Shown here piece after piece: positions 42,122-42,906 of a DNA stretch of 64,000 bases (positions are counted from its first letter, which is position 1; each line of letters opens with the position of its first letter). Source of the DNA: Escherichia phage P1; sequence record OP279344.1; one strand, written 5' to 3'. The notes below the pieces were generated by a model that searched no databases, was not told the origin of the DNA, and was given only the letters and a program-made list of their open reading frames with translations. Position numbers and translations under genes: made by a program.

Positions 42122-42556
42122 ATGTTCGGTAAATTGTTCGGCAAGAAAGTCGCTTCTGCAAAAGTAGAGCTGAAAAAAGTTGAGAATCGCGATCTGATGG
42201 AGGCCATTATCGGTGGCTGTTTGTTGGTGTCTGCCGCTGATGGTGAAATCGAAAAAGAAGAAACAGCGAAACTTGATCAGCTTGTCCGCTCTAATCCGCG
42301 TCTTAGTCATTTTGGTAACGAAATTACTGCAACAATTACCCGCTTTACCGAGCAACTGGAAGCTGGCTTCCGTGTTGGTCGCATGAATATCCTTCGCGAA
42401 ATTGAAGATATCAAAAACGATCCAAAAGAAGCGGAAGAAGTATTCGTTAACATGCTGACAATTGCAGAAGCGGACGGTGAAATCGAGCCAGCAGAACACA
42501 AAGTACTGGAAGAAGTAGGCCGTCGTTTAGGTCTTCGTGTGGAAGATTATCTGTAA
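42122..42556 (+). CDS. tciA: TerB-like protein, 144 aa
   Basis: Two AADGEIE repeats and helical TerB-like architecture; position between the tRNA genes. Confidence 0.6.
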   Translation: MFGKLFGKKVASAKVELKKVENRDLMEAIIGGCLLVSAADGEIEKEETAKLDQLVRSNPRLSHFGNEITATITRFTEQLEAGFRVGRMNILREIEDIKNDPKEAEEVFVNMLTIAEADGEIEPAEHKVLEEVGRRLGLRVEDYL

Positions 42557-42720
42557 TGGCAAGCAAGGCACGTATCGCAATCGCCATTGGTTTTCTCTTG
42601 CTGTCCGTGCTGGTGGATTTCACCAGCACAATCCTGTCAGTTTTATCGGACGGGGCGTTGGTGGCAGTAGCTGTAACATTGGTATGGCCGATATTAAAAA
42701 CAGCTTCTAAGGATCAGTGA
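42556..42720 (+). CDS. Small membrane peptide, 54 aa (not in ORF track)
   Basis: TAATG overlap with the upstream stop; two hydrophobic helices. Confidence 0.45.
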   Translation: MASKARIAIAIGFLLLSVLVDFTSTILSVLSDGALVAVAVTLVWPILKTASKDQ

Positions 42721-42827
42721 TGGGCTTCTGGGATTTTGCTGACAAGCATCCAATTGTTCTCGTTGTCATTGCTGGCATAGTTTTAGGCGGTATTGCTGGC
42801 GTCATAGAAGCACTCAGGAAACAGTAA
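42720..42827 (+). CDS. Small membrane peptide, 35 aa (not in ORF track)
   Basis: TGATG overlap with the upstream stop; one transmembrane helix IVLVVIAGIVLGGIAGVI. Confidence 0.45.
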   Translation: MGFWDFADKHPIVLVVIAGIVLGGIAGVIEALRKQ

Positions 42828-42830
42828 TCC

Positions 42831-42906
42831 GGCCCTTTAGCTCAGTGGTTAGAGCTGGCGACTCATAATCGCACGGTCACCGGTTCAAGTCCGGTAGGGG
42901 CCACCA
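42831..42906 (+). tRNA. tRNA-Ile (anticodon CAT; ileX-like lysidine type)
   Basis: GGCCCTTTAGCTCAGTGGTTAGAGC...anticodon loop CTCATAA...GGTTCAAGTCC...CCA; close to E. coli tRNA-Ile2 as I remember it. Confidence 0.85.

Follow-up and report, generated by a model that had tools for sequence, protein, structure and literature searches.

The tciABC-trnI segment of a P1/P7-type phage-plasmid: a TerB gene and two membrane peptide genes inside the C1-controlled ban operon

A gene of the TerB family carried by a phage, followed by two very short overlapping genes for membrane peptides and then by a tRNA gene, raises the question of whether such a segment equips the lysogen against stress or serves the phage during lytic growth. 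The case considered here occupies positions 42122-42906 of a 64,000-nucleotide stretch of DNA, called the window hereafter. The segment is the tciA-tciB-tciC-trnI part of a P1/P7-type phage-plasmid (punavirus) and lies inside the ban operon. It is 99.8% identical at the nucleotide level to terB, upf69.4, upf69.6 and tRNA-Ile of P7 and 100% identical to E. coli P1-like plasmids, and its P1 counterparts are tciA, tciB, tciC and trnI. The locus is already known, its genes having been listed for two decades in the records of P1 and P7; synteny and prior annotation of the unit extend over P1, P7, JL22, SJ46 and D6, and PHROG families already exist for all three proteins. The best explanation overall, and one that we hold to be fairly probable, combines a punavirus tciABC-trnI locus in the C1-controlled ban operon with, at a lower probability, the membrane mechanism proposed below.

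The window contains, downstream of Oban, the succession that characterizes the P1 locus: tRNA-Asn, tRNA-Thr, a spacer, tciA, tciB, tciC, tRNA-Ile(CAU) and ban, with stop/start overlaps between the tci genes. In the window, as in the annotated records of P1 and P7, the neighbours are dmt, tRNAs, RNA modules, tciB, tciC, trnI, ban and dbn, and both phages share with the window the same genes, order, overlaps, flanks and upstream C1 operator. On the plus strand, tciA (42122..42556, the P7 ‘terB’ allele) starts with an ATG preceded, 7 nt upstream, by the Shine-Dalgarno sequence GAGGG. Its TAA shares one base with the ATG of tciB (TAATG, 42554-42558; gene at 42556..42720, plus strand), whose TGA in turn shares one base with the ATG of tciC (TGATG, 42718-42722; gene at 42720..42827, plus strand), with AAGGA located 6 nt upstream of this last start. 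The TerB-like gene of 144 amino acids, the hydrophobic ORFs of 54 and 35 amino acids and both overlaps are thus present as given in a preliminary description of this DNA, and its placing of the tRNA start 4 nt after the last stop also agrees with the sequence, where the stop codon TAA is followed by three bases, TCC, and the tRNA begins at the fourth. The same description had the genes sandwiched between tRNA genes, which applies to the downstream side, where tRNA-Ile follows directly. On the upstream side, tRNA-Asn (GUU; 41036..41111, plus strand; ARAGORN; Rfam tRNA 72.7 bits; trnA of P1) and tRNA-Thr (UGU; 41114..41189, plus strand; ARAGORN; Rfam tRNA 72.9 bits; trnT of P1) end at 41189, 932 nt before tciA, and this gap consists of repeated structured-RNA-like modules.

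TciA is a true member of the TerB family and has the TerB fold. It matches Pfam TerB (PF05099) at 54.3 bits, with a cut-off of 24.4, over profile positions 2-113 of 118, and phmmer aligns it with Klebsiella TerB (PDB 2JXU) at E 5.3e-7. The protein is acidic and soluble/cytoplasmic, with a conserved basic N-terminal helix, an all-helical TerB-like fold and a duplicated acidic D-G-x5-E motif in the form of two ADGEIExxE copies. Comparison of tciA with its D6 counterpart gives 17 synonymous and 2 non-synonymous codon differences. A weak but specific similarity, far below the cut-off of the family, links TciA with the N-terminal TerB-like domain of DjlA (NCBIfam co-chaperone DjlA, E 7.7e-6). DjlA is a membrane-anchored co-chaperone that holds its TerB-like domain at the inner membrane; TciA differs from it by having no J domain and by leaving the membrane segment to a separate gene product rather than to a fusion. 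The tellurite-resistance ter clusters terZABCDE(F), found in IncHI2 plasmids and represented by Klebsiella TerB, resemble TciA in the TerB domain, the duplicated acidic DGxxxxxE and the all-helical fold. They also encode TerB beside a membrane protein, TerC, as TciA is encoded beside TciB, and TerB is reported to be a partner of TerC (PMC11003894). Unlike these clusters, the window offers a 54-aa peptide as partner and a phage lytic operon as setting.

TciB matches Pfam DUF3927 (PF13064; PHROG 1470) at 92.4 bits (cut-off 25, E 1.7e-26) over profile positions 3-53 of 53. Alignment of eight phage lineages reveals D21, F22, T23, D32, G33, L35 and P45 as invariant, and the D21-F-T and D32-G groups lie inside a hydrophobic stretch of 41 residues defined by hydropathy. 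The AlphaFold2 monomer is a single long helix (pTM 0.45), and both a hairpin and a single helix are possible. Since TciA and TciB match Pfam families and TciC matches PHROG 23152 (E 1.8e-26), the tci ORFs are not chance ORFs, and the two micro-ORFs that the preliminary description had taken for membrane peptides are real and conserved, as the Pfam and PHROG matches and a family alignment indicate.

Comparison among phages shows TerB and DUF3927 to be a mobile two-gene cassette, with putative translational coupling. Lytic operons of no fewer than five types of phage (P1-like, P2/186-like, N4-like, SSU5-like and lambdoid) carry the cassette, and in the N4-like, SSU5-like, lambdoid and P2-like phages the DUF3927 gene always comes straight after the TerB gene, overlapping or abutting it. 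For example, the pair is present in Pollock, FSL SP-058 and Cyrano, stands between Q and the holin gene in LMessi, belongs to the early operon of a Pectobacterium P2/186-like phage, and is found in most of 17 enterobacterial prophage loci of non-P1 type that were inspected, the tciA gene having been located in at least 12 of them. In lambdoid prophages it follows the terminator-like hairpin located after Q and precedes the holin/endolysin genes. In the case of a Pseudomonas prophage, TerB is followed by a different overlapping ORF of 67 aa with a single TM segment, unrelated to DUF3927. Because TerB pairs there with another TM peptide, what these loci probably conserve is the principle of a TerB protein with some small membrane partner. 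When eight TerB loci, lambdoid and related, were scanned with Rfam, nothing reached E <= 0.01, so the leader that is conserved ahead of the lambdoid tciA genes belongs to no known RNA family.

Within the punaviruses the cassette is also a mosaic. The tciA of the window is the P7 allele, 31% identical to the P1 allele in amino acids, and the exchange spans from ~42090, the end of the upstream RNA module, to codon 12-15 of tciB (~42595), so that tciA and the first ~12 codons of tciB belong to another allele in P1. Identity to P1 is 92-100% for the C-terminal half of TciB, for TciC, for trnI and for ban. TciA alleles that are 31% identical pair with nearly the same C-terminal half of TciB, and the same TciA allele also pairs with TciB proteins only 67% identical. 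Given these mixed pairings, any contact between TciA and TciB must rest on a few invariant residues.

The tRNA that closes the segment (42831..42906, plus strand; Rfam tRNA 64.7 bits; trnI of P1) is labelled ‘Met’ by ARAGORN from its CAT anticodon. Over 76/76 nt it shares 89.5% identity with a chromosomal CAU tRNA that all 5,426 E. coli genomes searched annotate as tRNA-Ile, and its acceptor stem, GGCCCUU/AGGGGCC, carries C4-G69 and C5-G68, which we take to be TilS identity pairs. For both reasons the Ile assignment of the preliminary description is preferred to ‘Met’, and an ileX-like tRNA-Ile2 that reads AUA, with putative lysidine modification, is the better call. Beyond it, the spacer between trnI and ban (42907..43192, plus strand) is non-coding; between positions 42921 and 43089 it shares ~81% identity with unannotated stretches of Stx phages. 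A structured RNA at 42907-43186 was considered and rejected, with a fold z-score of +0.11 and no match to the covariance model. The operon's named gene, ban, which encodes a DnaB-like replicative helicase in the ORF list and in the P1/P7 annotation, follows at 43193..44557 (plus strand).

Upstream of tciA, repeats, folds and a covariance model delimit an array of structured-RNA-like modules at 41190..42089 (plus strand). In it, long hairpins alternate with STnc100-like domains, one after each hairpin; the covarying helix UUGYGRUG...CAYCRCAA closes these domains, and one of the long hairpins holds the T-arm-like GGGUUCGAAUCCC. The repeats fall into families D2, D3, D5, D6 and D8, with inverted repeats I1 and I3; fold z-scores range from -2.3 to -4.0 in three of four segments and reach -1.7 for 41400-41620. 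Covariance-model matches lie at 41270-41409, 41699-41805 and 41960-42089 in the window, and unseeded matches occur in other phages too. The final module stops 32 nt ahead of the tciA ATG. This module matches STnc100 (Rfam RF02076) at 33.9 bits (E 1.8e-5, model positions 31-147 of 206), below the Rfam gathering score of 47; it resembles STnc100 in structure and is a non-member by the Rfam criterion. The hairpins of 41190-42121 were also considered as tRNA genes and rejected, since neither ARAGORN nor the Rfam tRNA model calls any; they consist of just the T-arm-like hairpin and closing stems of 7-15 bp. P1 annotates plp/upl over the array on the opposite strand, and the plp ORF is broken by indels at module joints; what these ORFs cover is probably a set of non-coding RNA modules akin to sRNAs of prophages. 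Compared with P1, the spacer from tRNA-Thr to tciA contains one extra module of 215 nt. One possibility is that the STnc100-like array and the flanking tRNAs form a processing scaffold that would determine where the tci message begins and ends and in what dosage it is present.

Similar ingredients, in the same order of kinds, are assembled between Q and the lysis genes of lambdoid and Stx phages, a region that contains the ileZ-argN-argO tRNAs, stx, STnc100/PasD, the PasA/PasC sRNAs and TerB genes. Shared with the window are tRNAs, STnc100-like RNA modules, TerB-DUF3927 and an Ile(CAU) tRNA, the latter being 86% identical between the window and Stx2 phages, and TerB (PF05099) is described as a conserved neighbour of PasA/PasC (bioRxiv 10.64898/2026.05.13.724894). 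The settings differ: P1 and P7 place these elements in an early C1-repressed operon before a helicase gene, whereas the lambdoid and Stx phages place them in a Q-dependent late operon before lysis genes.

Transcription of the segment is likely to start far upstream. A bivalent C1 repressor operator (Oban/Op72ab; 40354..40381, assigned to neither strand), identified by operator-site match and P1 annotation, overlaps the promoters of the ban operon. It consists of ATTGCTCTAATAAATTT, perfect at 40354-40370 on the plus strand, and of a copy with two mismatches at 40365-40381 on the minus strand, and its position matches the annotated Obanab/P1ban/P2ban of P1. This is the likely start region of transcription for all tRNA, tci and ban features downstream, and a note in the P7 record states that Op(ban) controls the tRNAs and the downstream genes. 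Transcripts from the operator must pass a G+C-rich terminator-like hairpin with a T7 run (40541..40570, plus strand; terminator scan and sequence) before the tRNAs and tci genes; this hairpin is the end of the P1 ‘dicF-like region’ (a P1 misc_feature), where Rfam does not call DicF. The tciABC genes are located 1.75 kb downstream of the operator pair, and a promoter scan of the plus strand from 40000 to 43900 found no sigma-70-like site, hence none proper to them. Because a perfect C1 operator pair lies upstream and no own promoter was found, tciABC is probably expressed on derepression and not in lysogens. Tci transcripts have been found in P1vir infection (bioRxiv 10.64898/2025.12.28.696737).

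The search of the literature found no experimental report on the function of tciA, tciB or tciC, and the mechanism that we propose is tentative and, as a whole, less likely than not. Upon derepression, the ban operon would be transcribed as one precursor, and an RNase P cut at tRNA-Ile would yield a tciABC message ending 3 nt past the last stop. TciA would then dock on the cytoplasmic face of the inner membrane via TciB, a miniature membrane anchor, in a manner analogous to TerB with TerC or to the TerB-like domain that DjlA keeps tethered to the membrane. The paired acidic DGxxxxxE sites of TciA may bind a divalent cation and so buffer or sense membrane or ion stress in lytic growth, while TciC, a single-pass peptide with N-out/C-in orientation, would be independent. 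The outcome would be an accessory, non-essential fitness function and not an exclusion system expressed by lysogens. Any benefit must be conditional, since about half of the P1 subgroup-1 phage-plasmids have lost tciABC (PMC9603915).

Two other readings also place the pair in the lytic cycle, and both are unlikely. According to the first, TerB and its small membrane peptide form an envelope device that delays premature holin triggering, keeps the proton-motive force or blocks division, with no buffering of metal or stress. The lambdoid position between Q with its terminator-like hairpin and the holin/endolysin genes fits this reading, as does the alternative cassette of the slot, which is also membrane-organising; ‘inhibition of cell division’ is part of the tci name, and a preprint places tciA, tciB and tciC, purely on the strength of annotation, among the genes that control cell division, together with icd and kilA (bioRxiv 10.64898/2025.12.28.696737). 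However, profile searches give no homology to holins, antiholins or division inhibitors, the P1, P2-like and N4-like pairs lie far from lysis genes in early operons, and in a CRISPRi screen of P1 tciA, tciB and tciC are non-essential and show no plating defect on knock-down (PMC10695390). The second reading, equally improbable and linked to the RNA-scaffold possibility, sees in TerB and its tiny membrane partner a lytic-only ‘membrane insurance’ or counter-defence module shared by at least five unrelated phage lineages. If true, the pair would guard the inner membrane or ion balance of the infected cell against insults that depolarise the membrane, such as effectors of abortive infection, colicins that form pores, superinfection or leaky holins, and would be a counter-defence module instead of a host-benefit gene.

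That tciABC is a lysogenic-conversion module for stress or exclusion, giving tolerance to tellurite or pore-forming colicins or phage exclusion like the IncHI2 ter operon, is quite unlikely. It is the reading closest to the preliminary description, and it draws on the TerB family membership of TciA, on a label that the P1 record bears by homology and on the location of the genes in a region that is among the eight hypervariable ones in P1-like phage-plasmids (PMC9603915), where accessory or defence loci are often found. Against it, TerC, TerD, TerE and TerZ are absent within ~+/-5 kb of the tci genes, both here and in P1 and P7 as annotated, while the tellurite-resistant ter constructs described in one paper contain at least terBCDEF (PMC11003894). 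The defence-system reading was likewise rejected for want of a credible match in PADLOC-DB, where TciA gives only a 13-bit partial match (E 0.0086) to PDC-S48 and TciB and TciC none. The C1 operator, the absence of an own promoter-like site and the lytic-operon setting in other phages (after Q and a hairpin in lambdoid prophages, in early operons of P2-like and N4-like phages) argue against exclusion expressed by lysogens. From these operon positions expression is expected in lytic growth, when protection of the host is of little matter.

The genes tciA, tciB and tciC are not tied together as a single unit: TciC-like peptides are also found without TerB/DUF3927, beside SPFH cassettes. TciC is a genuine conserved single-pass peptide of a separate family of P1/D6-like phage-plasmids and is not TerB-specific. 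In relatives, a cassette of a small membrane protein and an SPFH-domain lipoprotein replaces the TerB cassette in the same P1/D6 slot, with TciC still just before tRNA-Ile. The gene matches 278 plasmid records by tblastn, and diverged members, 26-71% identical to the window peptide, occur in D6 and in E. coli, Enterobacter, Leclercia and Pantoea phage-plasmids; within P1/D6-like phage-plasmids the TciC-like genes lie in the tRNA/ban region. An alignment of seven members shows 35-43 aa, M-x-F-W-x-F-x-D-K-x-P, one TM segment and K-A-L-R with a basic C-terminus; Pfam finds no domain in TciC or any relative, and a 43-aa relative used as protein query matches only close ‘hypothetical’ relatives. 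Purifying selection on tciC is evident at the family level only, in motif, length, Shine-Dalgarno sequence and coupling.

That tciC, and perhaps tciB also, is untranslated, a mere spacer or 5′ leader of tRNA-Ile with the ORF as by-product, is very unlikely: tciC is very short, ends 3 nt from the tRNA, is left unannotated by PGAP in RefSeq plasmids and differs between the P1 and SJ46 types by 4 synonymous and 10 non-synonymous codon differences spread over all codon positions (6, 4 and 4), but the ORF with its motif, hydrophobic core and basic tail is kept in seven lineages and persists down to 26% amino acid identity, where the DNA is ~50% identical, Shine-Dalgarno sequences and stop/start overlap or close abutment recur in P1-, SJ46- and D6-type copies, and the match of TciB to a curated family of Pfam reaches 92 bits. 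Moreover, the TciC-like genes of the Leclercia and Pantoea plasmids have no tRNA directly after them, so the gene is more than a tRNA leader.

As a discovery, the locus carries little weight, and its remaining value is the defined question of what a TerB fold with a 50-aa membrane peptide does in lytic operons. The tellurite or colicin function is a label given by homology, unaccompanied by adjacent TerC, TerD or TerE genes and by any PADLOC model match, and the ‘tellurite/colicin resistance’ product names that have spread through phage and plasmid annotation are unsupported. The tciC gene is a real small-protein gene missed by PGAP in hundreds of plasmid records, and P1 is the easiest system in which the role of TerB-DUF3927 could be found.

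Reading of the sequence from 41500 to 43600, together with the ORF listing, places a TerB-like gene of 144 aa, tciA, at 42122-42556. It is followed by tciB (42556-42720, 54 codons), whose ATG has one base in common with the tciA TAA (TAATG), and by tciC (42720-42827, 35 codons), whose ATG has one base in common with the tciB TGA (TGATG) and which carries AAGGA 6 bases 5′. The genes and overlaps of the preliminary description are thus all present. Its location of the unit between tRNA genes holds on the 3′ side, where the 76-nt trnI (42831-42906) starts past a 3-base spacer, but is only loosely true on the other, since tRNA-Asn and tRNA-Thr (41036-41189) lie 932 nt 5′ of tciA. 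The genes are real, and the locus is already known and annotated. Megablast against phage records and the annotated P1, P7 and JL22 regions identify a P1/P7-type punavirus, and the interval is P1 tciA-tciB-tciC-trnI, or P7 terB-upf69.4-upf69.6-tRNA-Ile, flanked by dmt and ban. Its 811 bases at 42100-42910 are 99.8% identical to P7, and several E. coli plasmids of 96 kb match the 2.4 kb at 40900-43300 with 100% identity. A literature search found no functional experiments on tciA, tciB or tciC.

TciA is a real TerB-fold protein. It matches Pfam TerB at 54.3 bits (cut-off 24.4) and the NMR structure of Klebsiella TerB, 2JXU (phmmer, E 5e-7), and its AlphaFold2 model, built with 53 homologues, has six helices and a pLDDT of 93.3. 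The protein is acidic (net charge -8), with a duplicated ADGEIExxE motif whose repetition is visible even in the DNA (repeat family D7), and its basic N-terminal helix MFGxxFxKK is kept in all alleles. TciB matches DUF3927 at 92.4 bits (cut-off 25), and TciA, TciB and TciC match PHROGs 632, 1470 and 23152, respectively. In two database proteins, P0054 (JGI, 171 aa) and P0021 (NCBI, 175 aa), TerB continues into the next frame. P0054 has Pfam matches to both TerB and DUF3927; the frame into which P0021 is read does not encode DUF3927. A TerB-DUF3927 frameshift or a gene-calling artefact is more likely for P0054 than a real fusion, which, if it existed, would argue for a physical interaction between the two proteins.

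TerB and DUF3927 together form a mobile cassette of two genes that belongs to lytic operons. A survey that combined tblastn with TciB, inspection of annotated regions, scanning of a single genome for each species and retrieval of TciA relatives located it in Pollock and FSL SP-058, both N4-like podoviruses (early/middle region), in the SSU5-like phage-plasmid Cyrano, and in the early operon of P2/186-like Pectobacterium prophages, 5′ of replication genes. In lambdoid phages and prophages it generally comes directly after a terminator-like hairpin with a T-run, 5′ of holin/endolysin-like genes; for example, it lies between Q and holin in LMessi and at locus L015, and directly 3′ of a Q-like ORF in another lambdoid locus, L025. 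At most loci the DUF3927 gene overlaps or abuts the TerB gene, immediately 3′. In a Pseudomonas prophage (L036:4001-4644), a TerB gene whose product is 75% identical to the window TciA overlaps a 67-aa ORF on its 3′ side. This ORF has a single TM segment, at the N-terminus, matches nothing in Pfam and seems to stand in for DUF3927 without being homologous to it. Because of the adjacent pair at most loci and this substitute, what is conserved in principle is the translational coupling of a TerB-fold protein with a tiny membrane protein, at a site suited to expression in lytic growth.

The TerB genes of lambdoid prophages (L012-L020, L025, L027 and L007) also have a conserved leader about 110 nt 5′ of the tciA-like start (e.g. 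L012:2455-2569), coming after the terminator-like hairpin. It contains interleaved complementary segments, CCACAGAG/CTCTGTGG and GGTGAGCCAG/CTGGCTCACC, in pseudoknot-like order, and has no match in Rfam. The window's tciA leader is unlike it.

For tciABC, identity, gene families, fold, coupling, position in the operon and distribution are all established; the mechanism that might unite them is, taken as a whole, doubtful. TciB would recruit TciA to the inner membrane, on its cytoplasmic side. There the pair of acidic motifs would hold a divalent cation, and TciA would sense or buffer stress affecting the membrane or ions while the phage develops lytically. One parallel is TerB, which PMC11003894, citing Turkovicova 2016, reports to interact with TerC, an integral membrane protein. 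A second parallel to the proposed siting of TciA is DjlA, whose TerB-like domain is membrane-tethered (weak NCBIfam similarity). The monomer model of TciB, a single 52-residue helix (pTM 0.45), does not fix its topology. An envelope, lysis-timing or division function is an alternative that draws on the proximity of the lambdoid pair to holin and on an SPFH gene in an alternative cassette, but no homology speaks for it and there is no plating defect, tciA, tciB, tciC and trnI all being non-essential for P1 plating in a genome-wide CRISPRi screen (PMC10695390).

The window tci genes are likewise placed for expression in lytic growth. A perfect bivalent C1 operator at 40354-40381 coincides with the annotated P1 Oban and ban promoters, and a + strand search from this operator to 43900 gave no sigma-70-like site. 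Transcripts of tci have been detected during P1vir infection (bioRxiv 10.64898/2025.12.28.696737). The tellurite, colicin or exclusion label first proposed is a name only, and its context speaks partly against it: a module of this kind expressed in the lysogen has against it that no TerC, TerD or TerE lies nearby, that PADLOC gives no match and that the setting is a repressed lytic operon. At 40479-40580, between the C1-controlled promoter and the tRNAs, a strong hairpin with a T7 run (40541-40570) ends the 'dicF-like' region of P1, in which Rfam does not report DicF at E <= 1; the hairpin may act as the terminator of a short sRNA or as an attenuator of the operon.

The alignment of its family speaks against tciC being untranslated. 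Taken alone, the 4 synonymous and 10 non-synonymous codon differences between P1-type and SJ46-type TciC prove little. At the tciC position, D6 has a 37-aa ORF with an ATGA overlap and AGGA. Its peptide resembles TciC in its F-W-x-[FY]-x-D-K-x-P motif, its hydrophobic core and its basic tail. Further relatives, found by tblastn with this peptide, occur in E. coli D6-like plasmids (43 aa; a 72-aa membrane ORF and the gene of an SPFH lipoprotein immediately precede it, and tRNA-Ile immediately follows), in Enterobacter (42 aa, between an 88-aa membrane ORF and tRNA-Ile), and in plasmids of Pantoea (adjoining a small membrane ORF and an SPFH gene) and of Leclercia (adjoining a small membrane ORF and a lipoprotein-like ORF). 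Identity to the window peptide falls from 71% to 26%, with DNA only ~50% identical at the low end, and M1, P11 and R33 are invariant among the seven peptides, a family that provides good comparative evidence for translation. TciC would be oriented N-out/C-in by the positive-inside rule, and is a small protein resident in the P1/D6 tRNA/ban region, not a TerB accessory. In some D6/P1-like phage-plasmids (L029:2442-3632 and L032:3501-4759), a 72-75-aa membrane ORF and an SPFH-domain lipoprotein replace TerB-DUF3927; the TciC-like peptide is retained, and in L029 also tRNA-Ile. The tci slot seems dedicated to membrane-associated cargo. In RefSeq plasmids tciC is without PGAP annotation; the D6 record (L010, NC_050154.1) lacks both the TciC-like ORF and the tRNA-Ile (L010:2285-2360), and places three tRNA features on the strand opposite to that of ARAGORN, at the same coordinates.

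In P1-like phage-plasmids tciABC is one of eight hypervariable regions and is absent from about half of subgroup 1 (PMC9603915). The window TciA is 31% identical to that of P1 and differs from that of D6 at 2 of 144 residues, with 17 synonymous changes. Sliding identity to P1 is ~45% from ~42090 to ~42595 and 92-100% elsewhere; against D6 the pattern is reversed (tciA 92-98%, tciB/tciC 50-84%, trnI 100%). The exchanged allele comprises tciA and the first dozen tciB codons, and its left junction coincides with the end of the last upstream RNA module.

ARAGORN calls the downstream tRNA 'Met' from its CAT anticodon. The original assignment to isoleucine is borne out: across all 5,426 complete E. 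coli genomes, trnI is 89.5% identical over its full length to a CAU tRNA annotated as tRNA-Ile, and its acceptor stem has C4-G69 and C5-G68, the TilS identity pairs. Because of this identity and these pairs, trnI is read as an Ile2-type, AUA-reading tRNA. The rare AUA codon occurs twice in the 35 codons of tciC (42720-42827) and once in tciB, with the phage's own tRNA-Ile2 immediately downstream (42831-42906). The trnI-ban spacer (42907-43192) is conserved among P1, P7 and D6, and its segment 42921-43089 is ~81% identical to unannotated Stx-phage DNA; its fold stability is not unusual (z +0.11) and it matches no model.

The 932 nt from tRNA-Thr to tciA (array 41190-42089, + strand) consist of repeated modules, where P1 has plp and upl annotated on the opposite strand. 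Long hairpins, one of them of 74 nt with a 15-bp stem around a T-arm-like GGGUUCGAAUCCC, are each followed by a 60-135-nt domain with the closing helix UUGYGRUG...CAYCRCAA. Between copies and between phages this helix shows covariation (U-A to C-G in five of ten sequences, G-C to A-U in one), and folding is more stable than in shuffled controls for three of four segments (z -2.3 to -4.0), the effect being weaker for 41400-41620 (z -1.7). A covariance model finds three copies in the window. Copies outside its seed turn up in other phage-plasmids and also in lambdoid prophages, where they lie immediately 3′ of a tRNA-Arg that comes after TerB-DUF3927. One module also occurs singly in lambdoid phages, ~450 nt 3′ of a cI-like gene, at 96-98% identity. 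Where the window, P1, P7, D6 and SJ46 differ by indels, these lie at the joints between modules and break the plp frame or delete upl, and PGAP calls no genes in this stretch in most plasmids. The stretch is probably non-coding RNA rather than protein genes. Its last domain matches Rfam STnc100 at 33.9 bits (E 1.8e-5), below the threshold of 47; STnc100/PasD are related prophage sRNAs, and conserved neighbours of PasA/PasC include TerB (Zhu, Shabalina and Storz, bioRxiv 10.64898/2026.05.13.724894). In phage 434, the SASA esterase gene is closely preceded by a 62-aa 'putative membrane protein' (L008:2156-2344) within which a terminator is annotated; this ORF may be a mis-called sRNA gene, because PasD is reported at that position in the related phage 2B8 (NC_049952). 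Judged by the comparisons of upstream modules, the first half of the P1 ban operon seems akin to the accessory region that separates Q from the lysis genes in lambdoid phages. The remaining value of the locus lies in a cassette of TerB and a mini-membrane protein that is unexplained yet widespread, and in neighbouring RNA modules that are probably mis-annotated.
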